DNA of 58,702 bases from Candidatus Dormiibacterota bacterium (GCA_036276135.1 DATBEL010000002.1:1-58702); one strand, 5' to 3'. Positions 1,335-27,510 are shown, counted from the first letter of the stretch. Program-made: numbers and translations. Notes: a model not told the origin generated them from the sequence alone.

Positions 1335-3122
1335 TCAGTTGTCGCCGACGACCTGTAGGCCCGTGAAGATCTCCACCGGCACGCCCTCGCCCTCGGCTTC
1401 GAGGTGATCGAGGAAGTGCGGAATGGTCCCCGTCGCCGTGAAACCGCCGAGCACCGCACCATCCTCGCCGAGGCCGGTCTGGCGGTAGGCGAAGATCTCC
1501 TGGAGCTGCACGTGTTCGCCATCGGTCCCCAGCACCTCGGTGATGCTCACGATCTTGCGTGTGCCGTCGCGCATGCGCGACTGCTGGACGATGATGTTGA
1601 CCGCGGAGCCGATCTGCTCGCGAATCGCTCGCGACGGGAGCTCAGCGCCGGCCATGAGCACCAGGGTCTCGAGCCTGCCGATGCATTCCCTGGCGTTGTT
1701 GGCGTGCAGGGTTGTCAGTGAGCCGTCGTGGCCGGTGTTCATCGCCTGGAGCATGTCCAGGGCCTCGCCACCGCGGCACTCGCCGATGACGATGCGGTCG
1801 GGGCGCATGCGCAGGGAGTTGATCACCAGCTCGCGGATGGTCACGCGGCCGCGTCCCTCGATGTTGGCCGGTCGCGTCTCGAGCGTCACCACGTGCTCCT
1901 GGCGCAGCTGGAGCTCGGCAGCGTCCTCGATGGTGACGATGCGCTCCTCCTCGGGGATGAAGCTCGAGAGCAGGTTGAGCGTGGTCGTCTTGCCCGACCC
2001 TGTGCCACCGCTGACGATGACGTTGAGGCGTCCGCGGACGCAGGCGCGAAGGAAGCGCACCATGTCCTCGGTGATCGTCCCGAAGTTCACCAGGTCCTCG
2101 ACCGTGAATGCCTCCTTGGCGAACTTACGGATGGTGAGCGTCGGCCCGCGCAATGCAAGTGGGGGGATGATCACGTTGACGCGCGAGCCGTCCTTGAGCC
2201 GGGCGTCCACCATCGGCGACGACTCGTCGACGCGCCGGCCGATGCTGCTGACGATGCGATCGATCACCTGCATCAGCTGATCGTTGGTCTCGAACGTCAC
2301 CGGGCTGAGGCTCAGCTTGCCCTGCTGCTCGACGTAGATCTGGTTGTGCTTGTTGATCATGATCTCGGTGATCTCGGGGTCATGGAGCAGCCCTTCGAGG
2401 GGCCCGAGCCCGAGCGCGTCGTCGATCACGGTCTCGACCACGCGCAGCTTGTCCTGGCGGGTCATCGAGAGGTTCTGTTCAGCCACGAGCTCGTTGACCA
2501 GCTCGCCGATGCGCTGGCGCACCTGCTCCGGTGGGGCGGTGGCGGCGTTGCCGGCGAGCTCCTCGACGAGGCGCTGGTGCACCTTGGTGCGCAGCTGTCC
2601 GTAGAGGTTGCTTCCGCCCGGCTTGGACAGGGGGCCGCGGGAGAGCGCTGTGCGATTGAGCAGCGACGACTGCCGGGCCGGCGCCTCGGCGCCGGTGCCC
2701 GAACCAGCCCCGGTGCGCATCATCAGCGGAGGTGCCGGACGGGGCGCCGAGGGTGACGGCGTGCCATTGGCCCCCTGGGAGGCCTGGTCAGCCGTGCTGC
2801 TCGATGGCGATGAAGCGCTCCCGAGGATCGCCGGCCGCGGCTGGGTCACCGAGGGGGCGGACCCCGGCCCATTCGACGGGGCCGCCGCGCTGGCCGCCGG
2901 CTGCGCAGGCGGTGCATGCCGAACCTGCCAGCCGGTGAGTGTCGACACGTCGGGAACGGCCGCCGGGACGTCGAGCGTTTGGAAGACGGGTGGCTCGGGC
3001 CGGCTGGGGGAGGTCGCGGCCGGCGCGGGCTCGGTGGCCGGGGTGGCCGCCTTGGCGTCATCGTCCGAGGGAGGTGTCTGCCCTTCCTCTGCCTTGCGTT
3101 GCACCCTGTCGAGTAGCGACAT
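1335..3122 (-). CDS. cpaF: Tad pilus assembly ATPase CpaF/TadA with long Pro/Ala-rich N-terminal extension
   Basis: Walker A GGTGSGKTT, Asp box TIEDAAEL, LRMRPDRIVIGECRG, His box MNTGHDGSLTTLHAN. Confidence 0.95.
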   Translation of the reverse strand: MSLLDRVQRKAEEGQTPPSDDDAKAATPATEPAPAATSPSRPEPPVFQTLDVPAAVPDVSTLTGWQVRHAPPAQPAASAAAPSNGPGSAPSVTQPRPAILGSASSPSSSTADQASQGANGTPSPSAPRPAPPLMMRTGAGSGTGAEAPARQSSLLNRTALSRGPLSKPGGSNLYGQLRTKVHQRLVEELAGNAATAPPEQVRQRIGELVNELVAEQNLSMTRQDKLRVVETVIDDALGLGPLEGLLHDPEITEIMINKHNQIYVEQQGKLSLSPVTFETNDQLMQVIDRIVSSIGRRVDESSPMVDARLKDGSRVNVIIPPLALRGPTLTIRKFAKEAFTVEDLVNFGTITEDMVRFLRACVRGRLNVIVSGGTGSGKTTTLNLLSSFIPEEERIVTIEDAAELQLRQEHVVTLETRPANIEGRGRVTIRELVINSLRMRPDRIVIGECRGGEALDMLQAMNTGHDGSLTTLHANNARECIGRLETLVLMAGAELPSRAIREQIGSAVNIIVQQSRMRDGTRKIVSITEVLGTDGEHVQLQEIFAYRQTGLGEDGAVLGGFTATGTIPHFLDHLEAEGEGVPVEIFTGLQVVGDN

Positions 3123-11782: not shown

Positions 11783-13309
11783 ATGGCAGCCGGGCTCTTC
11801 TTCATCAGGCAGATTGCAAGAGATGTGCCGCAAGGGTGGGAATCACCAGTGATCGCAATGAACGACGCGGTCGACGTCCTCCGCCACGGCTGGCAGGATG
11901 CGGCCGGTATCTTTGCGCCCGACAGCCCGGAGATCGCCGAGCTGCTCCAGGCGCGCCTCGAGATGGCCGTGGCCAACCGCTCGCTCGATGAGAACCACCT
12001 CCTCGGCGCCATCGATGACGTCGAGTCGATGGCGGCCAGCACGGGCAGCCCGTCAGGCCAGGCACTCGCCCGCCGACTGCGCCGGACCGTCTACGAGTAC
12101 CTCCTCGCTCTCGATGCGGCGCCGCCTCCGGTCCTCGCCGCGCCGGCGCCCACCCCGGCTCTTGCCGTCCAGCCGCACGAGCCCGAGGCCAAGGCCGAGC
12201 CCGAGCCCGAGACCGAGCCAGAAGAGGTCTCCGCCCTCGGGCATCGCGCCCCACCGATGGAGTCGACGGCCGCGCCGTCCACGCCCGCCACCGCGGAGGC
12301 CGAGCCGATCGACGTCGCGCCCTTGGACACCCCCACCGACGACGGCGTCGAGGCAGCGCAGACCGACCTCGAGCCTGCGCCGGCCGTACAGCCCGAAGCG
12401 GCCACGCCGGCTGCAGAGCCCGAAGCGGCCACACTGGCGGCGTCTTCTCCCCAGCCGGCTGCTCCGCCGGCGGCAGCAGAGGCCACGTCCGACGGGCACC
12501 CTGACGGCTTCGTCGCCCCCAGGGCTGGGTTCCACGTGATCGAGGACACCCACCCCACCCACGCTCCCCGCGAGGCGGCCGAGTCACCGCTGCAGATGCC
12601 GGCCTTCGCCCAACCCGAGGTCGCCGCCGCGCCCCCGGCGGGCCCCGAGCATGCCGAGGGCGAGCTGGCCACGTACCAGTGGACCCGGCCGGGTCCCCCG
12701 GGCCCCGCCGCCGCGCCCGCATCCAACGGGCACGCCGCTCCCCCGTCCACTCAGCCGGCACCGGCTGCCGACGGCCCTGCCGCCTACGACGTCGACCCCG
12801 ACAACGGCTGGCACGTGCGCAGAGGCGAGACCCCGGCCCCGCCCACCATCGACGAGGATCCCTTCGAGAACAACCCCCGGCTTGCCGACCTGCGCCGGCG
12901 CATCGATGAGCGCCTCCGTCGCAAGAAGTGCGACGACGCGGCCGCTCTGCTGCAGGAGCTCGCCCAGGAGATCGGCGGACGCGTCGTGGCGGAGCTGGCC
13001 ATGAATGCGGGTGACCGCTGTCAGAGCCTTGGCAAGTCCAATGCCGCGCTGAACTGTTATCTCGCCGGGTCGCGCGCCGATCCCGTCTACGAGCTGCCCC
13101 TGAGCCGGCTCGCCGACATCTGCATCGATGACCAGGACACCGAGCTCGCGGTGTCGTACCTCGAACGCATCGCGCGCCTCTACCGGTTCCGCGGTGACGA
13201 CAAGGCGGCGTTGCGTGTCTACCGGCGCATCGCCACCATCGCGCCGTACCGCGAGGATGTGCTCGCGTTGCTGCTCAACGTGCACAACACGGGGCGATTC
13301 GAGTCCTGA
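11783..13309 (+). CDS. Hypothetical protein: N-terminal helical domain, long Pro/Ala/Glu linker, C-terminal TPR-like repeats
   Basis: C-terminal helical repeats (AALNCYLAGSRADP; AVSYLERIARLY; AALRVYRRIATIAP). Confidence 0.75.
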   Translation: MAAGLFFIRQIARDVPQGWESPVIAMNDAVDVLRHGWQDAAGIFAPDSPEIAELLQARLEMAVANRSLDENHLLGAIDDVESMAASTGSPSGQALARRLRRTVYEYLLALDAAPPPVLAAPAPTPALAVQPHEPEAKAEPEPETEPEEVSALGHRAPPMESTAAPSTPATAEAEPIDVAPLDTPTDDGVEAAQTDLEPAPAVQPEAATPAAEPEAATLAASSPQPAAPPAAAEATSDGHPDGFVAPRAGFHVIEDTHPTHAPREAAESPLQMPAFAQPEVAAAPPAGPEHAEGELATYQWTRPGPPGPAAAPASNGHAAPPSTQPAPAADGPAAYDVDPDNGWHVRRGETPAPPTIDEDPFENNPRLADLRRRIDERLRRKKCDDAAALLQELAQEIGGRVVAELAMNAGDRCQSLGKSNAALNCYLAGSRADPVYELPLSRLADICIDDQDTELAVSYLERIARLYRFRGDDKAALRVYRRIATIAPYREDVLALLLNVHNTGRFES

Positions 13310-13495: not shown

Positions 13496-14323
13496 GTGGC
13501 CATTCAGCCGAACAAACCGCAGAACCGGGTGTTTCTGCTTGTGGGCATCGTGCTCGCGGCGGCCGCCGCGCTTGCTGTTCTCTTCGCGGTCAGCCGCAGC
13601 AGCAGCAACACACCGACGACCAATGTTGTCGTTGCCAAGACGACGATCGCCGCAGGGACGTCGATCAGCTCCGACATGGTCACCACCACCGCGCTCGCGC
13701 AGGGAAGCTTCCCCGCCGACGTGTACACCGACCCGTCCGCCGTGGTCGGCAAGACTGCGCCGGTGACGCTGAGCCAGAACACCCCGCTGTACACGTCGCT
13801 GTTCGTCTCGGCGAACCCCGGCGTGCCGGGCCAGCCCGTGCTCGCGCACCTGGACATCACCAAGGGATACGTGGCGCTTGCCATTCCTGCCAGCAGCGGT
13901 GTCAGCGGCGGCGGCGCCAATGCCGAGCTCGCCTCGGTCGGCTTCTACATCCAGCCAGAGGATCACATCGACATCCTCATCGACCCGGGAACCCCGACTC
14001 AGCCGGGCGTGCGCTATTCCTTCCAGGATGTCCGCGTGCTCCGCGTGGGTGCCTCGGGCAGCACGGGCAGTGCCGTGACCTCGTACATCATCGAGCTGCC
14101 ACGCAGCCAGGCGGAGATCATGACCGCGCTGACCACCCCCGGACGCTCCGGCGGGCCGGTCGTGCTCAAGTACGTGCTGCGTCCACAGAGCGAATGGGGC
14201 AAGCGTGACGGCGCCAACGGCTTCGACAAGCCACTCTACGAGGCCAGCACCGCCGCGCCGCTCACCACCGCCGCCGACAGTGGCGTGACCGCAGCCTCGC
14301 TCAACGCGCTGTTCGCCCACTGA
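13496..14323 (+). CDS. cpaB: Flp pilus assembly protein CpaB/RcpC (SAF domain)
   Basis: N-terminal TM; VVVAKTTIAAGTSI SAF motif; GYVALAIP; FYIQPEDHIDIL; FQDVRVLRVG; precedes tadB/tadC. Confidence 0.88.
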   Translation: MAIQPNKPQNRVFLLVGIVLAAAAALAVLFAVSRSSSNTPTTNVVVAKTTIAAGTSISSDMVTTTALAQGSFPADVYTDPSAVVGKTAPVTLSQNTPLYTSLFVSANPGVPGQPVLAHLDITKGYVALAIPASSGVSGGGANAELASVGFYIQPEDHIDILIDPGTPTQPGVRYSFQDVRVLRVGASGSTGSAVTSYIIELPRSQAEIMTALTTPGRSGGPVVLKYVLRPQSEWGKRDGANGFDKPLYEASTAAPLTTAADSGVTAASLNALFAH

Positions 14324-14367: not shown

Positions 14368-15351
14368 GTGATGACCTTCAGCCTTCCCGCGGTCGCCGCC
14401 GCGCTGCTCGCCGCGGGCACGATCTTCAGCCTGACGCTGTGGGCATCGGGCCGGCGTCTCACCGAGGCCGACCGCGTCTCGGCGCGACTGAGCCAGTACG
14501 GGCGCCCCACCGAGCTTGCGCCGACGCGGGTCCGCACCGGCAACCCGCTTCGAGACATGATCGAGGCGTTCGCCGCCATGCTCAACCCGGTGCTGGCACG
14601 CTCGTCCCACACCGGCAAGCTCGCCGACGACCTGCAGAAGGCCGACCTCAAGCTGAAGTCGTCGGAGTGGGTGCTCGCCGTGGTGGCATCCGGCGTCGTG
14701 CTGGGCGGGTTCCTCGCCCTGCGGTTCGCCAACCCGGTCGTCTTCTTCATCGGCCCGCTCGGCGCCTGGGCGTTGAGCGCTGTGTACCTCCGCTTCCGCC
14801 AGGGCCGGCGCACGCGTGCGTTCAACAACCAGCTCGGCGACACCATCACCCTGCTCAGCAATGCGCTCAAGGCCGGCTACTCGTTCGCGCAGGCACTGGC
14901 GTCGGTGGCCAAGAACGGCACGCCCCCCATCTCCGAGGAGTTCGGCCGGGCCGTGCGCGAGATCGCGCTCGGCATCACCGTCGATGACGCCCTCAACCAC
15001 ATGGTGAACCGCAACAAGTCCGAGGACTTCGACCTGCTGGTCACCGCCGTGCAGATCCAGCGCGTGGTCGGTGGCAACCTTGCCGAGATCCTCGACACCA
15101 TCGCCTACACGATCCGCGAACGCGTCCGCATCCAGGGCGAGATCCGCACCATCACCGCGCAGGCGCGCATCTCGGGGTGGATCATCACCCTGCTGCCGTT
15201 CGGGCTCGCCGGCGTGCTCGCGGTCATCTCGCCGTCGTACTTCGGCCCGATGCTTTCGGACAACCTCGGCCATGTCATGCTCGGCATCGGGGTCTTCTCG
15301 ATCATCATCGGCGCCGCCGCGATCCAGAAGATCGTGAAGATCGAGGTCTGA
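14368..15351 (+). CDS. tadB: Tad inner-membrane platform protein TadB (T2SS-F family)
   Basis: FNNQLGDTITLLSNALKAGYSF; AVQIQRVVGGNLAEILD; RERVRIQGEIRTITAQAR. Confidence 0.93.
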   Translation: MMTFSLPAVAAALLAAGTIFSLTLWASGRRLTEADRVSARLSQYGRPTELAPTRVRTGNPLRDMIEAFAAMLNPVLARSSHTGKLADDLQKADLKLKSSEWVLAVVASGVVLGGFLALRFANPVVFFIGPLGAWALSAVYLRFRQGRRTRAFNNQLGDTITLLSNALKAGYSFAQALASVAKNGTPPISEEFGRAVREIALGITVDDALNHMVNRNKSEDFDLLVTAVQIQRVVGGNLAEILDTIAYTIRERVRIQGEIRTITAQARISGWIITLLPFGLAGVLAVISPSYFGPMLSDNLGHVMLGIGVFSIIIGAAAIQKIVKIEV

Positions 15352-17879: not shown

Positions 17880-18266
17880 TCAGACGGCCACCGGGTTGTC
17901 CGAGACGAAGAACGATCTCACCACCGACCCGAGGCCGACCAGGTTGAACGGCTTGGTGATGAGGTGGTTGGCGCCGGCCAGCCGTGCCCGTTCGACGTCC
18001 TCGTCGCCCGACAGGGCGCTGAACATGAGCACGGGGATGTCCGCGGTGCCGGGGTTGGCACGGATCAGCCGGCAGGCCTCGATGCCGTCCATGCCCGGCA
18101 TCATGATGTCGAGGATGACCAGGTCGGGCCGCTGCTTGGCGACCTCGGCGAGCCCGTCCTCGCCGTTCGACGCCATGGCCACGTCGTATCCCTCGATGCC
18201 GAGGTACATGGCGACGATGTGGAGCAGACGGGGGTCATCATCGACAACCAGGACGCGTGGGCTCAT
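17880..18266 (-). CDS. Single-domain response regulator (receiver only)
   Basis: VLVVDDD, PDLVILDIMMPGMDG, FSA, ITKPF; no output domain. Confidence 0.95.
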   Translation of the reverse strand: MSPRVLVVDDDPRLLHIVAMYLGIEGYDVAMASNGEDGLAEVAKQRPDLVILDIMMPGMDGIEACRLIRANPGTADIPVLMFSALSGDEDVERARLAGANHLITKPFNLVGLGSVVRSFFVSDNPVAV

Positions 18267-19276: not shown

Positions 19277-19468
19277 ATGCTTAGCAATCTCTATCTCCGT
19301 CTCCGCGAGCTCATGGTTCGCAATCAGGAAGATGAGGAAGGCCAGGGTATGGTCGAGTACGCGCTCATCCTCGTCCTCATCGCTGTCGTCGTCATCGTCA
19401 TCCTCACCGTCGTTGGCAAGCAGGTCAACAACGTCTTCTCGAACATCAGCAGCGGCCTCGGTACTTAA
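19277..19468 (+). CDS. flp: Flp/Fap type IVb major pilin
   Basis: AAAGGAGGTGA SD; prepilin motif EEGQG|MVEYALIL followed by hydrophobic helix. Confidence 0.95.
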   Translation: MLSNLYLRLRELMVRNQEDEEGQGMVEYALILVLIAVVVIVILTVVGKQVNNVFSNISSGLGT

Positions 19469-19495: not shown

Positions 19496-19531
19496 AAGGG
19501 GAGCCGCATCGTGCGGCTCCCCTTTCTGTTT
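19496..19531 (+). terminator. Intrinsic terminator after flp
   Basis: Perfect 13-bp stem AAGGGGAGCCGCA-TCG-TGCGGCTCCCCTT followed by TCTGTTT. Confidence 0.85.
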
Positions 19532-19605: not shown

Positions 19606-21234
19606 ATGGACGAGGAACAGGCCGGCCGCACGATCCGCGTGGTGGTCGCGGCTCCCTTCAAGGAGATCGTGGGGATCCACGAGAAGGTCTCCGAATACGC
19701 GGACGAGCTCGACGTCTGCGGCGTGGTGTCGAGTGCCGGTGTGGTCGCCGAGCAGACCCGGGTCCTCCAGCCCGAGGTGCTGGTGCTGAGCGAGAACCTC
19801 GGCATCGACCCTGCCGAGGCCGCCGCCACCCTGGCGCAGACAGCTCCAAGCACGAGGCTGGTCGTGCTGGTCAGCAGCCGTGACACCCTCCCGCCCGGCG
19901 CGGCCGCCGCCGTGCTCCGCCTCGACGCCTCGGCCCGCGAGCTTCGCGCCGCCGTGATGCTGGCGGCGGGCAGGCTGCGAAACCAAACCGCCCCGCCGGC
20001 GCACTCGCGAGCGTGGAGCAGCGGCTCGGAACCGTCGCGCTGGCTCTGGGAAGACGCCGACGCGACCGCGCGGCCCGAACCCTCGACCGAGCCGGCTGAG
20101 CCCGTCGATCTGACCGCTGGTTCGGCGCCGGCGCCACCCGCCAAGGAGGCGTCCGCTTGGCCGCCGCCGTGGCTGCAGGCCCCCGCGCAGCCGGAGGACG
20201 CTGGGCAGGCGGACGTCCGCGCCGATGCCGCGACCGCAGATCCAGATTCACCTTCATCTGCCGCGGTGGCGGACACCGACCCGATGGCCGGCACGGCCGC
20301 GGAGGCTCCCGCCCCGGTGGCCCCGGCGCCCGACGCGCCGGTGGACGCTCCCGCCGCCGTGGAGGCGCCCGAACCCGAGGAGGAGGCGCTGATCGAGCAG
20401 CCGCGCAAGCGGGTGCGCCGTCCCGGGCGGACCAAGGCGGACACGGTGCTGGTGTTCAGCGGCAAGGGTGGCGTGGGCAAGTCGGTGATCGCCACCAACC
20501 TCGCCGTGGCCCTCTCGGCGCGTGGGGTCAAGGTCGCCCTCATCGATCTCAACCTGCAGTACGGCGATGTCGGGGTCCTCCTCCACGCCGAGAGCCACCC
20601 CACCTCGATCGAGTCGCTGGCCCAGCAGGGCGAGCAGGTCGATCGCGAGTACCTCGACGAGGTCATGGCCACCGGCCCTGAGGACGTGCGCATCCTCCTG
20701 GCGCCGGCCAGCCCCGAGTTTGCCGACCTGGTCACCGCTGCCAGCCTGCGCGCCATCCTTCGCGAGCTGTCGCGCGGCTACGACTACGTCATCGTGGATT
20801 CCCCGGCGCACATCGAGGAGCGTGTCCTCGAGGTCATGGAGGTGGCCGACCAGATCCTCGTGGTCAGCTCCTTCAACATCACCTCTGTCAAGGACACCAA
20901 GGTGACGCTGAAGTTGCTCCAGTCCCTGGGGATCGAGCGTGATCGCATCGCCGTGGTGCTCAACCAGGTCCACCCCAAGGTGGGCTTTCCCCGGGAGGAG
21001 ATCGAGAAGTCGTTGCGGCGCGAGGTGCTCGCCCACCTCCCCTACGATGTCCGCATCGACGAGAGCATCGACAACGGCAGGCCGGCGGTCATCGGCGAGC
21101 CGCGCTCGGAGTTCAGCAAGCAACTCAGGGTCGTCGTCGATTTCCTGACCCCCGAGGAGGGGGCCGCCGTCGACGCCGTCGGCGCTGACCAGGTCCGCGA
21201 CCGGGCCTCGAAGCGCCGGCTCTTCGGGCGCTGA
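19606..21234 (+). CDS. cpaE: CpaE/TadZ-like MinD/ParA ATPase #1 with degenerate receiver-like domain and long linker
   Basis: FSGKGGVGKS, VALIDLNLQYGD, YDYVIVDSP, LAHLPYD; N-terminal receiver fold lacks DD, phospho-Asp and KP. Confidence 0.85.
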   Translation: MDEEQAGRTIRVVVAAPFKEIVGIHEKVSEYADELDVCGVVSSAGVVAEQTRVLQPEVLVLSENLGIDPAEAAATLAQTAPSTRLVVLVSSRDTLPPGAAAAVLRLDASARELRAAVMLAAGRLRNQTAPPAHSRAWSSGSEPSRWLWEDADATARPEPSTEPAEPVDLTAGSAPAPPAKEASAWPPPWLQAPAQPEDAGQADVRADAATADPDSPSSAAVADTDPMAGTAAEAPAPVAPAPDAPVDAPAAVEAPEPEEEALIEQPRKRVRRPGRTKADTVLVFSGKGGVGKSVIATNLAVALSARGVKVALIDLNLQYGDVGVLLHAESHPTSIESLAQQGEQVDREYLDEVMATGPEDVRILLAPASPEFADLVTAASLRAILRELSRGYDYVIVDSPAHIEERVLEVMEVADQILVVSSFNITSVKDTKVTLKLLQSLGIERDRIAVVLNQVHPKVGFPREEIEKSLRREVLAHLPYDVRIDESIDNGRPAVIGEPRSEFSKQLRVVVDFLTPEEGAAVDAVGADQVRDRASKRRLFGR

Positions 21235-21391
21235 GCGCCGCGGCTCGCCGAATACGTTTCGGCTCGATGAACGCTGCGAACGCGTCAATTAGTCGCAGTC
21301 ATGCAACGGCGCGTCTGACACGCTTTGACGAGCCGCCGACGAGCGGTGAATCCGGCCCGGAACGGCCCTGGACCGCCTCTACCCTGCGGCG

Positions 21392-22717
21392 GTGCGGAAA
21401 ATTCTCATCGCCGTGGTCGCCGGCTGCCTGTGCCTCATCGCGGCCCCGGTCAGCGCCGCCCCGGCCACCTCAGCCCCGCCGCCCGTCGCCAAAGCGACCG
21501 ACCCGCTGGCCGCCGCGCTCCAGCTCCAGCTCCAGCAGCAGGCCGCGCTCAACGCCACCGTCGGCTCGCTGGCCAGCGAGCTCCAGGCGGCCCAGGACTC
21601 GCAGACCACGCTCCGCACCCTGATCGCGGCCAACCAGGCGGCGATCTCCCAAACCCTGACGCAGCTGACCACGGCCGAGCAGCACTACAGCGACGCCAGC
21701 ACGCGCGAGGCAACCGAGAAGGCTGCCGCGGCGGCGGCGCGACTGCAGGTCCGCTCCGACAAGGCTCTGCTCGCACAGTACGCGCGCCTCGGCTACGAGA
21801 CGCAGGGCGACCTCCTCTCGTTCCTTCTGTCGAGCAGCTCGATGTCCGACCTCTTCAGCCGGGCCGTCGACCTCTCCCGGCTGACGCACCGCGGCGCCGA
21901 CCTCGTCGACCAGATCAACAGCGACGTCGCCGAGGCGGATGTTGCCGAGGCCAAGGCGGCCGCTGACGCCACCGCAGCGGCGCAGGCGGCGGCCCAGCTG
22001 CTGCAGCAGCAGCAGACCCTCCAGCAACAGACGCAGCATGCCCAGGACCTGGTCGACCAGTTGGGCGCCCAGGCATCGGCGACGCGTGCGGAGATCAGCG
22101 CCGCCAACAGCCAGAGCCTGGCCGTGGCCCAGCAGATCGCGCAGACCCGCCTGGCCGAGCTCGACCAGACGATCGCGGAGGCCATGCAGGCCGCGTGGCA
22201 GGAGGCGACGTACTACCTGCAGCAGCACCTGGGAACACTCCCTGCCTCGATCACCGCCGTGCCGACGGTCCCGATCAACCCGGACGGCAAGCAGCTGGTC
22301 TGGCCGGTCAACGGCACGGCCATCAACCAGCCGTTCGGCCCCTCGCCGTACCCGTTCGAACCGCCGTTCGACGGTTTCCCGCACTTCCACACCGGCCTCG
22401 ACCTGGCCGGGCCGCTCGGCACCCCGATCGTGAGCGCCGCTGCCGGCGTCGTCGTCGCCGCCGACGTCAGCACCGTCGGCTACGGCAACCACATCATCAT
22501 CGCCCACGCCGGTGGCCTGCTCACCCTGTACGGCCACCTCGAGACCATGCTCGTCAAACCCGGTGACGTGGTGAAGGCCGGGCAGCTCATCGCGCTGCTC
22601 GGTTCGACCGGCAACTCCACAGGCCCGCACTGCCATTTCGAGGTCAGGCTCAACGGCGTGCCGGTGAATCCCGTCCTCTTCCTGCCGCCCCTTCCCGCAG
22701 GCGCGACCGGCCCGTAA
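21392..22717 (+). CDS. Secreted M23 family peptidase with long coiled coil
   Basis: Signal peptide; Ala/Gln coiled coil; HTGLD, YGNHIII, YGHL, GSTGNSTGPHCHFEVR. Confidence 0.92.
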   Translation: MRKILIAVVAGCLCLIAAPVSAAPATSAPPPVAKATDPLAAALQLQLQQQAALNATVGSLASELQAAQDSQTTLRTLIAANQAAISQTLTQLTTAEQHYSDASTREATEKAAAAAARLQVRSDKALLAQYARLGYETQGDLLSFLLSSSSMSDLFSRAVDLSRLTHRGADLVDQINSDVAEADVAEAKAAADATAAAQAAAQLLQQQQTLQQQTQHAQDLVDQLGAQASATRAEISAANSQSLAVAQQIAQTRLAELDQTIAEAMQAAWQEATYYLQQHLGTLPASITAVPTVPINPDGKQLVWPVNGTAINQPFGPSPYPFEPPFDGFPHFHTGLDLAGPLGTPIVSAAAGVVVAADVSTVGYGNHIIIAHAGGLLTLYGHLETMLVKPGDVVKAGQLIALLGSTGNSTGPHCHFEVRLNGVPVNPVLFLPPLPAGATGP

Positions 22718-22774
22718 CAGCGGCGTGGGGGAATTGCCGGGCGGTGGCAGCGATGATGGCCCGGAGGTGAACTC

Positions 22775-24049
22775 GTGATCCGCGTCCTGATCGCCGACGA
22801 GAGCCGGGTGGTGAACGACAACATCGCCCGCCGGCTCGCGCTCGAGGACGACCTGGTCGTCTGCGGCACCGCCGCCGACGGCGAGTCCGCTGTCCAGGAG
22901 GCGCTCTGGCTGCGTCCCGACATCGCCGTGGTGGACGCCGGCCTGCCCGGCATGGACGGTGGCCAGACCACCGAGATGCTCGCCCAGTGCCTGCCCGGGA
23001 CCGGCGTGATCATGATGTCGATGGAGGCTGAGAATGACGCCTACCGGCTGGCCATGCTCGCCGGGGCGCGCGAGTTCCTGCAGAAGCCGTTCCGCGGCGA
23101 CGACCTGGTGGCGGCGGTGCGCCGCGTCCACGCCTTCGGACAGCGCCGTGCGGTTGCCGCCGAAGCGGCGGTCCTCGCCGCCACTCCCGCCACCGCTCCT
23201 CCGCCAGAGCCGGCCCCCATCGCGTCCCCGACCGTGACCGGCCTGGTGACGGCGGTGATCGCGGGCAAGGGCGGAGTCGGCAAGACGGTGGTGGCCATCA
23301 ACCTGGCAACCGCTCTGCGAGGTGGCAAGTCACGGCGCGTGGTGGTCGTCGACCTGTCCCTCCAGTTCGGCGACATCGGCGCCGCGCTCGCGCTGCGCGC
23401 CGACCGCACCATCGGCGACCTGCTCGCTGACGATCAGCTCGCCGACCATGAGCTGGTGCGCGACACCCTCATCGCCGGGCCCGGGGGCATCAGCGTGCTG
23501 CTGGCGCCGCTCACACCGGAGGTGGCCGACTACATCACGCCGGCGCACCTGAGCACATTGGTCGACACGCTACGCGCTGACTTCGACCACATCGTCATCG
23601 ACACGCCCTCGTACCTCACCGACACCACGCTGAACGCGGTCAGCGTCGCCGACCACGTCGTCCTGGTCACCGACCTGAGTCTCACCGGCGTCAAGAACAC
23701 ACGCCTGGTGCGCGGCGTGCTCGACACCCTCAACGTGGTCCCAACGCGCGTGCTCGTGGTCGCCAACCACCGCGAGTCGGCGGGCGAGCTGGACAGCCGC
23801 GGCGCGGAGACCTTCCTTGGCACCGCCATCGCCGCCAGCATCCCCTTCGACCCCAACGTGGTGGCCACGTCAGTGAACACCGGAGTCCCCTTCGTGATCA
23901 AGGAGCCCAAATCGAAGGCGAGCGCCGGCGTGCGCGCCATCGCCGATGCCATCGATGCGGTGCCCGCCACGGACGCCACCGGCGCGCCGTCGGCGCAGGT
24001 GGCGCGGCCGAAGAAGGCGTCGCGCCGCAAGCTCAGCTTCGGTCGCTGA
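22775..24049 (+). CDS. cpaE: CpaE/TadZ-like ATPase #2 with receiver domain
   Basis: VLIADE, PDIAVVDAGLPGMDG, EFLQKPF; IAGKGGVGKT; VDLSLQFGD. Confidence 0.88.
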   Translation: MIRVLIADESRVVNDNIARRLALEDDLVVCGTAADGESAVQEALWLRPDIAVVDAGLPGMDGGQTTEMLAQCLPGTGVIMMSMEAENDAYRLAMLAGAREFLQKPFRGDDLVAAVRRVHAFGQRRAVAAEAAVLAATPATAPPPEPAPIASPTVTGLVTAVIAGKGGVGKTVVAINLATALRGGKSRRVVVVDLSLQFGDIGAALALRADRTIGDLLADDQLADHELVRDTLIAGPGGISVLLAPLTPEVADYITPAHLSTLVDTLRADFDHIVIDTPSYLTDTTLNAVSVADHVVLVTDLSLTGVKNTRLVRGVLDTLNVVPTRVLVVANHRESAGELDSRGAETFLGTAIAASIPFDPNVVATSVNTGVPFVIKEPKSKASAGVRAIADAIDAVPATDATGAPSAQVARPKKASRRKLSFGR

Positions 24050-24060
24050 ACGGCCGTCGT

Positions 24061-25293
24061 CTAGCGGCCGAACAGCCCCTTGCGCTTCTTGCGGTCGACG
24101 GGTTCAGGTGCCACCGCTGCTGCGTGCTCGGGAAGGATGCGGGCGACCAGCTCGCGGATTGCCTTGCTCACCTCGGCCTCGGGATGCGCGATCACGAACG
24201 GTGTGCCGCTGGTGATCGCGTCGCCGACGATCCTGGGGTCGTGGGGGATCTGCACCGCCACAGGCACGCGCAGGCTCTGCTCGATCGACTCGCGGTTGAA
24301 GTCGGCGTAGCCGTCGACGCGGTTGACCACCAGCAGGGTGTTCTCGGCGTCGACCGACAGTGACTCGAGAACCTTGAGCGTCAGCTTGGCGTCCTTGATC
24401 GCCGGGATGGTCAGCGCCGTCACCACCAGCACCCGTTGAGCCATCTCGACGACCTCGAGGTTGAACTCGGTGAGGTGGGTCGAGCAGTCGACCACGACAT
24501 AGTCGAAGGCACGGCGCAGCTCGGCCATCAGCAGGCGCACATGCTCGGCGGTGACCAGATCGGCGAGCTCGGGGCTGATCGGCGCCAGCAGCACCTTGAC
24601 GCCGCCGGGGCCGTTGGCGAGCACGTCGGCAACGCTGTCCGAGTCGACCCCGCCGGAGCCGTCCACAAGCTCGGTGATGCTGCGGCTGTGGTCGAGGTTG
24701 AGCATCACGCCGATGTCGCCAAACTGCAGGTCGAGGTCGACGAGCGCGACGCGGCCGCCGCTCTGTTCGGCGATCGCCACCGCGAGGTTGGTGGCGATCA
24801 GCGTCTTGCCGACACCGCCCTTGCCCGAGAAGACGAGGAACACCTCGGCGGGGGCGCTGCTGCGCGGGGCAGTCGGCGCCTCCGGCTGCTGGGGCATCGA
24901 CTGCGCGATGAACGTCCCCTTCTTCAGCTCGAGCTGGTACACGCGCCTGATCGCCGCCACCAGCTCGTCGTGGCTGAAGGGCTTGATGAGGAACTCACGA
25001 GCGCCGGCCTGCATGGCCCGCCGCAGGTAGTCGCGTTCGCCCTGCACGGACATGATGATCACCGGCGACGTCGGCAGCTCCGACGCCAGTGTCTCGGTGA
25101 GCTGGATGCCGTCCATCAGCGGCATGTTCACGTCGGTGAGCACGATGTCGGGATGCAGGCGATGGGCGGCCTCGAGACCCTCGCGGCCGTCGGCGGCGGT
25201 TCCGACGACCTCGATGTCGTCCTCGAAGCTGAGGAGCTTCTGGAGGTTGTCGCGCGTGCTGGAGATGTCGTCGACGATGAGCAGGCTGATCAC
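24061..25293 (-). CDS. cpaE: CpaE/TadZ-like ATPase #3 with canonical receiver domain
   Basis: LLIVDD, PDIVLTDVNMPLMDG, EFLIKPF; FSGKGGVGKT; VDLDLQFGD. Confidence 0.9.
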   Translation of the reverse strand: MISLLIVDDISSTRDNLQKLLSFEDDIEVVGTAADGREGLEAAHRLHPDIVLTDVNMPLMDGIQLTETLASELPTSPVIIMSVQGERDYLRRAMQAGAREFLIKPFSHDELVAAIRRVYQLELKKGTFIAQSMPQQPEAPTAPRSSAPAEVFLVFSGKGGVGKTLIATNLAVAIAEQSGGRVALVDLDLQFGDIGVMLNLDHSRSITELVDGSGGVDSDSVADVLANGPGGVKVLLAPISPELADLVTAEHVRLLMAELRRAFDYVVVDCSTHLTEFNLEVVEMAQRVLVVTALTIPAIKDAKLTLKVLESLSVDAENTLLVVNRVDGYADFNRESIEQSLRVPVAVQIPHDPRIVGDAITSGTPFVIAHPEAEVSKAIRELVARILPEHAAAVAPEPVDRKKRKGLFGR

Positions 25294-25316
25294 GGTGGGC
25301 TTCAGTGCGTCCTTGA

Positions 25317-26027
25317 TCAGGCCACGGACATCCGAGACGCGGCGGCCGGGTCGACGGTGACGCCCGGTCCCATGGTGGCGGCGAGCGTGACGTTCTTCAC
25401 GTAGGTCCCCTTGGCGGCGGACGGCTTGGCACGCACGACCGCGTCCATCAGCGCGGCGAAATTGTCGCGCAACTTGGCGTCGTCGAACGACGCCTTGCCG
25501 ATCGCGGTGTGGATGATGCCGGCGCGGTCGACGCGGAACTCGACACGACCGCCCTGCACGTCCCTGACCGCCTTGGCGATGTCGAAGGTCACCGTCCCGG
25601 CCTTCGGGTTGGGCATCAACCCGCGCGGGCCGAGCACCTTGCCGAGACGGCCGACCTGGCCCATGAGGTCCGGCGTGGCCAGGGCCACATCGAAGTCGAT
25701 CTCGCCGGCCTGCACCTTCTTGACGAGGTCGTCGCCGCCGACCAGGTCGGCGCCCGCGTCGAGAGCCTCCTTGGCCTTCTCGCCGGTGGCGAAGACGGCG
25801 ATGCGACGGGTGCGGCCGGTGCCGTGCGGGAGGACCACGCTGCTCCGCACCATCTGGTCGGCGTGGCGCGGGTCGACGCCGAGGCGGATGTGCGCCTCGA
25901 TCGACGCGTCGAACTTGGCTGTCGACGATTTGCGCACCGCGCTGACCGCCTCATCCGGCGGGTATGCCCTGTCGGGCACGATCGCGGCGGCAGCCTCGCG
26001 GTATCTCTTTCCGTAACGGTGTGGCAT
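25317..26027 (-). CDS. rplA: 50S ribosomal protein L1
   Basis: [46 protein letters not shown]. Confidence 0.98.
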
Positions 26028-26041
26028 GACGATGGTCTCCT

Positions 26042-26072
26042 GTGGTGCGTGCGGGCGCCTGCGCCCTCCCAC
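26042..26072 (-). promoter_or_regulatory. Putative L1 autoregulatory RNA site in the rplK-rplA spacer
   Basis: GTGG-GAG-GGCG-CAGG-CGCC-...-CCAC immediately before SD AGGAG; resembles GUGGGAGG...CCAC L1-binding leaders of Bacillota/Actinomycetota. Confidence 0.5.
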
Positions 26073-26082
26073 GAACGGGTTC

Positions 26083-26508
26083 TTAGTTGACGGTGAGCCC
26101 CATCGAACGGGCGGTGCCCTCGATGACCTTCATCGCCTGCTCGATGTCGTATGCGTTGAGGTCCTGCATCTTCAGCTCGGCGATCTCGCGCACCTGGTCG
26201 CGTGAGACGGTGCCCACCTTGTCCCGGTTGGGCACCGCTGAGCCCTTCTCGACCCCGGCCGCCTTCTTGAGCAGGTTGTACGCCGGTGGCGTCTTGGTGA
26301 TGAACGTGAACGTGCGATCCTCGAAGATGGTGATCTCGGCTGGGATCACCGTGTCCCCCATCGAGGCGGTGCGCTCGTTGTACGCCTTGCAGAACTCCAT
26401 GATGTTGATGCCGTGCGGGCCCAGCGCGGTGCCGATCGGCGGCGCCGGTGTGGCCTTGCCGGCCGGGATCTGCAGACGGATGACTGTCTTGACCTTCTTC
26501 TTGCCCAC
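26083..26508 (-). CDS. rplK: 50S ribosomal protein L11
   Basis: [34 protein letters not shown]; FTFITKTPP; GTARSMG. Confidence 0.98.
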
Positions 26509-26517
26509 GCCGAACTC

Positions 26518-27069
26518 CTAACGCAGCCGCTCGACCTGGAGAAGGTCGAGCTCGACGGGCGTCTCACGCCCGAACATGTTGACCAGGACCTTGAGCTTGC
26601 CCTTCTCGGCATTCATCTCGGTGACCTTTCCGTGGAAATCGGTGAACGGACCATCGGTGACGCGCACGTTCTCGCCGATCTCGTATTCGACCGACACCTT
26701 GGTCGGGGCCTCGGCCTTGACCTGCTTCTGGATGCCGCGAACCTCGTGGTCCTGCAGGGGCACGGGCTTGTTGCCGCTGCCGACGAACGAGGTCACGCCG
26801 GGCGTGTTGCGCACCACGTACCACGACTCGTCGGACATGATCATGTTGACCAGGATGTAGCCGGGGAAGATCCGCTTGGCCACCTTGCGGCGCTGCCCGT
26901 CCTTGATCTCCATCACCTCCTCGGTGGGGACGAGGACGTCGAAGATCTTGTCGTGCATGTCCATCGACTCGACGCGCTTGAGGAGGTTGGCCTTGACCTT
27001 CTCCTCGTGTCCCGAGTAGGCGTGGACGACATACCAGCGGACGTCGGTGGTTGTGGCTGTCTCGTTCAT
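26518..27069 (-). CDS. nusG: Transcription termination/antitermination factor NusG
   Basis: WYVVHAYSGHEEKVK; IFPGYILV; VRNTPGVTSFVG; KOW; MFGRETPVEL. Confidence 0.98.
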   Translation of the reverse strand: MNETATTTDVRWYVVHAYSGHEEKVKANLLKRVESMDMHDKIFDVLVPTEEVMEIKDGQRRKVAKRIFPGYILVNMIMSDESWYVVRNTPGVTSFVGSGNKPVPLQDHEVRGIQKQVKAEAPTKVSVEYEIGENVRVTDGPFTDFHGKVTEMNAEKGKLKVLVNMFGRETPVELDLLQVERLR

Positions 27070-27079
27070 GTTGCGGTGC

Positions 27080-27454
27080 TCACGGTGTGATCGGTGCGGG
27101 GGACCCGCCTGCTGACGTTGGTTGTGCGGTGGCGGCCGGCCTGCTGGTCGCGCCGGGCGATACCGTCGACCCCTTCGGGGCCACCTGGCTGCCCGCTGCG
27201 CTGGTGCCGCTGGAGCTGTAGAGCTGCTTGACAACCTGCCCCAACGCGAAGTCGGCTGCGGAGACGATCAGGGCCATGAGGATGACGGTGGTGACCACGA
27301 CGCCGGTCATGCGCGCCAGTTCGTTCCAGGTCGGCCAGACGACCTTGCGCAGCTCGTCGACGACGCTCGCGAAATAGTTGCGGTCCATCCCAGCCGTGGG
27401 TGGTCCCACCGGCGTGCGAGACTTGCTCGGCTGGCCGCGTACCGCTCTGGCCAC
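27080..27454 (-). CDS. secE: Preprotein translocase subunit SecE with C-terminal extension
   Basis: YFASVVDELRKVVWPT motif plus TM, upstream of nusG; start uncertain (GTG 27454 or downstream ATG of MDRNY). Confidence 0.92.
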   Translation of the reverse strand: MARAVRGQPSKSRTPVGPPTAGMDRNYFASVVDELRKVVWPTWNELARMTGVVVTTVILMALIVSAADFALGQVVKQLYSSSGTSAAGSQVAPKGSTVSPGATSRPAATAQPTSAGGSPAPITP

Positions 27455-27510
27455 CTGACTTTCAGTTCCTCCTGGTTGGCGCCGCGTCCCTGCGGCCACC
27501 GGGTGTTCCG

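Follow-up and report, generated by a model that had tools for sequence, protein, structure and literature searches.

Studied Tad (tight adherence, or Flp) pilus systems have one TadZ/CpaE protein, and the signalling known to reach them acts on pilin or operon expression. The 58,702-nucleotide stretch of DNA analysed here (the window) is contig C2 of a 2.18-Mb, 86% complete metagenome-assembled genome of Candidatus Dormiibacterota, and it holds three CpaE/TadZ-like genes in the neighbourhood of Tad genes. The question raised by this locus is what three copies are doing where one is the rule. The genes, designated E1, E2 and E3, are as follows.

19606-21234, + strand: E1, 542 aa; pseudo-receiver, disordered linker and MinD/ParA-type ATPase with Asn at the MinD Asp40 (D40) position
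22775-24049, + strand: E2, 424 aa; phosphorylatable-looking receiver and ATPase with Ser at the MinD D40 position
24061-25293, - strand: E3, 410 aa; fully canonical receiver and fully canonical MinD-type ATPase

The explanation that we consider probable on balance is that these are three ancient paralogues of a Chloroflexota-type CpaE/TadZ that act on a single Tad (Flp) machine, with E3 as the core copy, E1 and E2 as accessory copies, and phosphorylation as a gate. The observations behind it are the paralogy of the three genes, their conservation, the state of their key residues and their gene context. The three-gene pattern lies far beyond chance and recurs in dozens of species.

All three open reading frames were present where the initial annotation had placed them, with both of the ATPase motifs claimed for them. 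Each product has a MinD/ParA-type ATPase domain matched by Pfam ParA, CbiA and AAA_31. The Walker A motif is of the deviant KGGxGK[ST] type (GKGGVGKS in E1, GKGGVGKT in E2 and in E3), and the second motif reads DLNLQYGD in E1, DLSLQFGD in E2 and DLDLQFGD in E3. No other strong CpaE-like gene was found in the genome. E2 and E3 are convergent, as had been noted, and lie on opposite strands with their stop codons 11 nt apart.

The N-terminal domains of the three proteins differ in their capacity to accept a phosphoryl group, as judged from their residues. The set expected of a response regulator (acidic pocket, phospho-Asp, Thr/Ser and Lys) is complete in E2 and E3 and incomplete in E1. E3 carries DD/D54/S/KPF and E2 carries DE/D/S/KPF; these assignments, made in the initial annotation, were read again in the sequences and are supported by Pfam Response_reg matches of 104 bits for E3 and 71 bits for E2. 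Both receivers scored best with NarL-class regulators. In the window E1, Response_reg gave no match, and the corresponding sites hold AA-P, a Ser at the phospho-site and no Lys.

The fold of E1 was predicted with AlphaFold2 from a 144-sequence alignment (mean predicted local distance difference test, pLDDT, 79). Residues 10-120 were modelled as a (beta-alpha)5 receiver-like domain with a pLDDT of about 95 and a weak fourth helix, and the ATPase domain was modelled at a pLDDT above 90. A profile built from E1 N-domains matched the receivers of NarL, VraR, DesR and Spo0A, with a best E of 4e-8 for the NarL type, and 5 of 20 individual E1 N-domains reached Pfam Response_reg at E<=0.01. The receiver-like fold and the profile match to NarL-type receivers confirm that E1 has a pseudo-receiver, in agreement with the loss of the acidic pocket, phospho-Asp and Lys that had been claimed for it. 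The top Foldseek ranks for the model were archaeal MinD (1HYQ) and a Chlorobium ParA-family ATPase (3EA0), with template modelling (TM) scores of 0.87-0.90 on the target. Of the first 50 matches, only the Eubacterium rectale TadZ structure 3FKQ had an alignment of sufficient length to cover both E1 domains (524 columns, E 9.5e-13). It was found by the fold search only, being absent among the 54 matches at E<=0.001 in a phmmer search of E1 against the PDB. Between the two domains, residues 127-260 are predicted to be disordered, giving a linker of about 135 aa. The disorder of the linker, put at about 150 aa in the initial annotation, was thus upheld; its length was not, since E1 orthologues vary between 404 and 634 aa, and a long linker was rejected as a defining feature of E1. 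In two species the E1 orthologue (L003:10643-11635 and L010:11177-12271) has no pseudo-receiver at all and consists of a short N-terminus followed by the ATPase domain.

The distribution of the three genes was followed in the Dormibacterota, a group that GTDB ranks as a class within Chloroflexota. A locus scan with one genome per species returned 80 loci. An rplA-linked E3-like gene was present in 69 of these, and the gene order was identical wherever the contig was long enough: nusG-rplK-rplA-E3, then convergent E2 and E1, flp, ICMT-CheY, CvpA and tadC-tadB-cpaB. Full-length E1, E2 and E3 occurred together in 52 loci, in one block with cpaB-tadB-tadC. Of the 80 loci, 69 yielded an Flp pilin gene, which adjoins E1 in every locus that has E1. 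Two complete chromosomes (G002 and G003) resemble the window in that their block reaches as far as the TPR and ABC/FtsX genes and the two CpaF genes. E3 shares 97% identity with a protein from 'Ca. Dormibacter sp.' and 90% with one from Ca. Amunia macphersoniae; its orthologues are named 'pilus assembly protein CpaE' by JGI and 'response regulator' or 'AAA family ATPase' by NCBI. Two loci (L011 and L076) have E3, flp and cpaB-tadBC and neither E1 nor E2, and no other strong copy exists in those genomes. Most genomes of the window's family carry 3-4 copies, against one in a neighbouring family; the three-copy state thus characterises the window's family. A sister lineage (10 loci) has a single E3-like CpaE, 58% identical to E3, in a canonical operon of the order kinase-flp-cpaB-CpaE-cpaF-tadB-tadC-DUF192-cpaF2.

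The relationships among the copies were examined in a tree of ATPase domains that included four outgroups (MinD and FlhG) taken from PDB alignments. E1 (support 92), E2 (100) and E3 (96) each formed a clade of their own, apart from the canonical-operon CpaE (100). All Dormibacterota copies were separated from the MinD and FlhG outgroups with a support of 96. The same three subclades recurred inside each of E1, E2 and E3. Separate clades with shared subclades indicate that the triplication is older than the radiation of the window's family.

Constraint on the three proteins is graded as well. Mean pairwise identity across 53 genomes was 90.7% for the E3 receiver, 74.9% for that of E2 and 43.4% for that of E1; for the ATPase domain the values were 73.3%, 60.9% and 56.6%, respectively. 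Constraint is thus strongest on the receiver in E3 and E2 and weakest on the pseudo-receiver in E1, and E3 is the slowest-evolving copy, E1 and E2 being faster. The receiver residues DD/D/S/K-P are kept in about 100% of E3 and canonical-operon sequences, and E2 orthologues keep D, D, S and K-P with E or G as the second acidic residue. The phospho-site of the 56 E1 orthologues is never Asp (His in 30, Ser in 14, Tyr in 10, Asn in 2), and the Lys is lost.

Degeneration is graded in the catalytic site of the ATPase as well as in the receiver, which goes beyond the initial annotation. Positions were equated through alignments with the Aquifex MinD entries 4V02 and 4V03. In these, the second Asp of D-L-D-L-Q-F-G-D falls on the residue by which the two entries differ, MinD Asp40. 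Loss of Asp40 in MinD blocks hydrolysis and traps the ATP dimer. The equivalent residue is Asp in 68/71 E3 and in all ten canonical copies, and Ser in every one of 62 E2 sequences; in E1 it is Asn in 9/56, the window included. Thr stands in place of the P-loop Lys in 34/56 E1 orthologues, and the complete catalytic set is present in 15 of the 56. Within the window, only E3 has the complete MinD set (signature Lys, P-loop Lys and both switch-I Asp). The TadZ of E. rectale, which is without both lysines, still has intrinsic ATPase activity (PMC10482377), so that loss of P-loop-type lysines is not fatal to TadZ function. E3 is assigned as the core copy because it is closest by identity to the sister-lineage CpaE, keeps all phospho-acceptor and ATPase catalytic residues, evolves slowest and is retained where E1 and E2 are lost.

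A short basic C-terminal tail that includes one or two hydrophobic residues is common to all four groups of proteins; it is K/R-rich and then G-L/I-F-G-R in E3, RRRFSLGRR or KRRLFGR in E1, RRKLSFGR in E2 and RRFGLRR in the canonical copy. Similar basic tails occur in most other sampled Chloroflexota CpaE. The tail appears to resemble the membrane-targeting sequence of MinD.

A wider sample of 20 CpaE-like loci from other Chloroflexota families was used to place these states. Nearly all of them have the order (cpaB)-cpaE-cpaF-tadB-tadC, and all 20 have one receiver-CpaE with intact DD/D/S/KPF (in L089 the receiver lies just upstream, outside the extracted frame). This argues that the pseudo-receiver of E1 is a derived state in the window's lineage. 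Seventeen of the 20 have Arg, Cys, Val or Ser in place of the P-loop Lys, Asn or Ser at the D40 position, or both. Homologues of E3 at 35-61% identity adjoin cpaF in cpaB-cpaE-cpaF-tadB-tadC operons across Chloroflexota.

Whether the three copies serve one machine or several was judged from the complete chromosomes. Both G002 and G003 have three clustered CpaE copies and a single TadB/TadC pair, with no second pair, and the copies are thus read as serving one machine; the alternative that the paralogues belong to separate, distant tad loci was rejected for the clade. Membership in a MinD or FlhG family was not found either, given the separate clade described above and scores of 82-97 bits with the MinD model TIGR01968 against a cut-off of 212.9, which none of the three reaches. 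The three are instead CpaE/TadZ-like paralogues tied to Tad genes, flp adjoining E1 and cpaB-tadB-tadC lying 3 kb off. The available models of the family, TIGR03815 (CpaE_hom_Actino) and Pfam TadZ_N, cover other subfamilies rather than the Chloroflexota type, and TadZ_N gave no match in E1-E3.

The neighbourhood of the three genes was mapped by Pfam scans of the neighbouring genes and a motif scan for flp.

1335-3122, - strand: CpaF/TadA-type secretion ATPase (CpaF1); Pfam T2SSE 219 bits; 63-66% identity to the canonical-operon cpaF
between cpaF and cpaB in map order: ABC/FtsX transporters, SPFH protein and TPR protein
13496-14323, + strand: CpaB/RcpC-like protein (SAF domain); Pfam SAF; the sister-lineage orthologue matches Pfam RcpC; syntenic
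14368-15351, + strand: TadB platform protein; Pfam T2SSF 77 bits
15356-16285, + strand: TadC platform protein; Pfam T2SSF 70 bits
16292-17290, - strand: 332-aa protein of no assigned family, between tadC and cvpA
between the 332-aa gene and flp: CvpA, then the CheY-like receiver, then an ICMT-type methyltransferase
17880-18266, - strand: single-domain CheY-like receiver; Pfam Response_reg 102 bits; 75-96% identity in nearly all related loci
19278-19468, + strand: Flp pilin gene, found by motif scan; ribosome-binding site and ATG read; leader ...EEGQG / MVEYALILVL...; directly upstream of E1
19496-19524, + strand: strong hairpin after flp; 13-bp stem with 9 GC pairs, then a T-rich tail, TTTCTGTTT
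21392-22717, + strand: secreted M23 peptidase with a coiled-coil N-terminal part, between E1 and E2; Pfam Peptidase_M23 114 bits
25317-26072, - strand: rplA (ribosomal protein L1); Pfam Ribosomal_L1 228 bits; stop 23 nt before the E3 start
E3 strand (-): secE-nusG-rplK-rplA-E3

From the E genes, cpaB-tadB-tadC is 3-8 kb away and cpaF 17-22 kb. The description of the region as one Tad locus does not hold in the sense of a compact locus, with cpaF at that distance, unrelated genes interspersed and E3 in the rplK-rplA unit. Since the stop of rplA precedes the E3 start by 23 nt, E3 is likely co-transcribed with rplK-rplA. The usual rplK-rplA-rplJ-rplL cluster is split here (24061-27499, -), with rplJ on another contig (C62:20536-20820), and dozens of Dormibacterota species conserve the adjacency of rplA and E3. 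Both E2 and E3 finish with F-G-R-stop, and as they lie on opposite strands this creates a near-perfect 12-nt inverted repeat with an 11-nt spacer (24038-24072); its arms, ttcggtcgctga ... ctagcggccgaa, could form a hairpin in both convergent transcripts. The hairpin after flp is likely, from its stem and T-rich tail, to be a terminator or an attenuator. A sigma-70 promoter scan of 17.8-27.6 kb found none, the sigma-70 model being uninformative for this phylum. No flagellar genes were seen in the window.

The M23 peptidase has a long coiled-coil N-terminal part with a weak PcsB coiled-coil match and is EnvC/NlpD-like. Only the window's subgroup (L002-L010, L041, L064, L065 and L067) has its gene between E1 and E2, and the peptidase is probably outside the core set. 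The CheY-like protein may be part of the pilus system. The 332-aa protein, for which Pfam gave no family match, is kept in most related loci and is missing from part of the window's subgroup. The N-terminus of CpaF1 is extended by about 250 aa of P/A/S-rich, disordered-looking sequence, and the TPR protein upstream of cpaB (11783-13309, +) has a PA-rich stretch of about 250 aa that resembles it; with the E1 linker, three proteins of the neighbourhood contain long low-complexity regions.

Further Tad genes lie elsewhere in the genome. A prepilin peptidase gene is on C72, and a second Tad module on C67:185-7101 (-) encodes a TadG-like protein, two TadE-like pseudopilins, cpaB, tadB and tadC, with neither an ATPase nor a CpaE. 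The second CpaF gene (CpaF2) is at the end of contig C94. As the second CpaF is next to the first in the complete relatives, C94 probably adjoins the start of the window.

The residue states suggest a division of labour. In the explanation that we favour, E3 would be a phospho-gated, hydrolysis-competent core. E2 would be a phospho-gated accessory that binds ATP and dimerises and, with Ser at the catalytic Asp position, hydrolyses poorly. E1, with its non-phosphorylatable pseudo-receiver and variable disordered linker, would be an accessory constitutive scaffold. ATP-bound homo- or heterodimers would associate with the membrane or with a partner through the conserved basic C-terminal tail (...KRKGLFGR) and would nucleate or gate the assembly of CpaF, TadB and TadC. 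Phosphorylation of E3 and E2 on Asp would switch the action of the dimers on or off, the kinase likely being of the HisKA_3 type. We infer in this way phosphorylation, the dimer partners, membrane binding and any effect on the placement, timing or reversal of the pilus. The copies may cooperate or compete in this, as the initial annotation proposed.

A candidate for the kinase was found through the sister lineage, in which a soluble HisKA_3/HATPase_c kinase is encoded directly upstream of flp in 10/10 loci (e.g. L073:7124-8344, +). HisKA_3 kinases pair with NarL-class receivers. An orthologue with 54% identity is encoded in the window's own genome at C94:9212-10462, and it is a candidate kinase for E2 and E3. 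The sister-lineage kinase gene is always divergent from a gene for a 529-aa membrane protein, and the same pair is found on C94. The intact receiver on Chloroflexota CpaE, taken with the kinase in the sister-lineage operon, points to direct phospho-control of pilus assembly. A bolder formulation may be offered as a tentative possibility: Chloroflexota CpaE would act as a genuine response regulator with Tad assembly as its output, and would have expanded in Dormibacterota to a three-part module on one machine, comprising a hydrolysing phospho-gated E3, a phospho-gated, hydrolysis-dead E2 and a constitutive scaffold E1. Mixed dimers could then set when, where or in which direction the machine runs, with one CpaF extending and the other retracting.

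Several observations weigh against the favoured explanation. None of E1-E3 adjoins cpaF, as canonical CpaE does, and E3 is attached to a ribosomal-protein operon rather than to a pilus operon. With TIGR03815 the proteins score below the cut-off of 154 (E1 67, E2 44 and E3 76 bits), and their best NCBIfam match is archaeal MinD, also below its cut-off. No kinase gene is present in the window or in the conserved block. The genome has the second cpaB-tadB-tadC module on C67, unlike G002 and G003. The reading of E1 as a uniformly dead ATPase was rejected, as 15/56 orthologues keep all catalytic residues. Finally, no MinD at the curated cut-off was found in the window's genome or in the complete chromosomes G001, G002 and G003, where the MinD model matched CpaE-like proteins best, and this leaves room for a division-related role.

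The main rival is that at least one paralogue was co-opted from the pilus to become a MinD-like regulator of division or wall remodelling, as proposed for actinobacterial Ssd, and that its linkage to tad is historical. We regard this as unlikely. It is kept alive by the want of a bona fide MinD in Dormibacterota and by the place of E3 in the ribosomal-protein operon, following rplA rather than pilus genes, and it gains from the full MinD catalytic set of E3, incomplete in 17/20 sampled operon CpaE of Chloroflexota. The PcsB/EnvC-like M23 peptidase between E1 and E2 would also suit a role at the wall, but this gene is a recent insertion in one subgroup. Against co-option, flp is directly upstream of E1 wherever E1 occurs, the whole block travels with cpaB-tadB-tadC and cpaF, and the genes most closely related to E3 outside the block are flanked by cpaB and cpaF. 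A minC/minE context was not seen, and Rv3660c/Ssd was itself found not to be a true mycobacterial MinD homologue (PMC10482377).

Two further explanations concern the need for three copies. E1 and E2 might be largely redundant, subfunctionalised duplicates, in which the graded loss of residues reflects relaxed constraint on spare copies. Their faster evolution relative to E3, their joint loss in one lineage that kept the other tad genes, and the differences in E1 linker and catalytic residues between subgroups speak for redundancy. Yet intact, full-length E1 and E2 were recovered from almost every locus with a sufficiently long contig (52), with the same three subclades for each paralogue, and the Ser of E2 is fixed in 62/62 with its receiver residues conserved. 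The mean identity of the E2 receiver, about 75%, exceeds that of its own ATPase domain, which indicates purifying selection on a specific function; redundancy is quite improbable. That each paralogue serves a different Tad machine or motor, either the window platform and the C67 module or CpaF1 and CpaF2, is very improbable. The genome does have two CpaB-TadB-TadC modules (that on C67 with TadE/TadG-like proteins) and two CpaF paralogues. However, G002 and G003 have three CpaE for one TadB/TadC pair, and in the sister lineage a single CpaE is accompanied by two CpaF genes in the operon and by two platform pairs (in G001), so that the copy numbers of CpaE and of the machine do not track each other.

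If phospho-control of CpaE proves true, the pilus would be controlled post-translationally rather than by transcription. The three-copy set is in addition a natural experiment in the splitting of a ParA/MinD protein into active and pseudo-enzyme partners, and it is found in a widespread uncultured soil group. To our knowledge, there is almost no cell biology of Dormibacterota. A literature search found no study of Tad pili in Dormibacterota and none of a phosphorylatable or phospho-controlled CpaE. No direct applied consequence is evident.

Compared with known systems, the three-copy CpaE set is an undescribed variant of the Tad system. The TadZ proteins of Aggregatibacter actinomycetemcomitans and E. 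rectale (3FKQ) and the CpaE of Caulobacter crescentus share with E1-E3 a receiver-like domain joined to a MinD/ParA ATPase with a deviant Walker A motif, and, as here, their genes lie with those of the Tad/Flp pilus. The receiver of the TadZ proteins studied so far is atypical and non-phosphorylatable (bioRxiv 10.64898/2026.07.08.737194), and thus it is E1, not E3, that resembles the characterised protein. E. rectale TadZ also offers a precedent for the loss of the P-loop Lys (PMC10482377). The present system differs from TadZ/CpaE in having three copies rather than one, with intact phospho-acceptor pockets in E2 and E3, no copy next to cpaF, the full MinD catalytic set in E3 and no match to Pfam TadZ_N. 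More than one tadZ in a Chloroflexota Tad cluster has a parallel in Litorilinea aerophila, whose tad operon has two copies (bioRxiv 10.1101/2025.08.19.671072). That report mentions the copies without analysis, and graded degeneration and conservation across a clade are not described there.

Among other relatives of the fold, the Chlorobium tepidum ParA-family protein 3EA0 gave the best sequence match to the ATPase domains of any solved structure, and its fold match ranked among the best. Like E2 it has the D-x-S-L-x-F-G-D form, and it is an ATPase domain only, of unknown function. MinD and FlhG (FleN) have the same fold (TM 0.8-0.9 on the target), and E3 keeps their signature Lys, P-loop Lys and switch Asps; they differ in having no N-terminal receiver, in a min or flagellar context in place of pilus genes, and in forming a separate clade. 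Ssd/Rv3660c (TIGR03815) likewise combines a MinD-like ATPase with an extra N-terminal domain in a Tad-like locus, but at 44-76 bits against the cut-off of 154 E1-E3 fall outside that subfamily. Another counterpart is the CpaE of canonical Chloroflexota operons, which has the architecture, the intact receiver residues and the basic C-terminal tail of E3. There it is a single copy between cpaB and cpaF, with the HisKA_3 kinase in the operon of the sister lineage; here three copies, one of them (E1) without a phospho-site, have been relocated next to flp and rplA.

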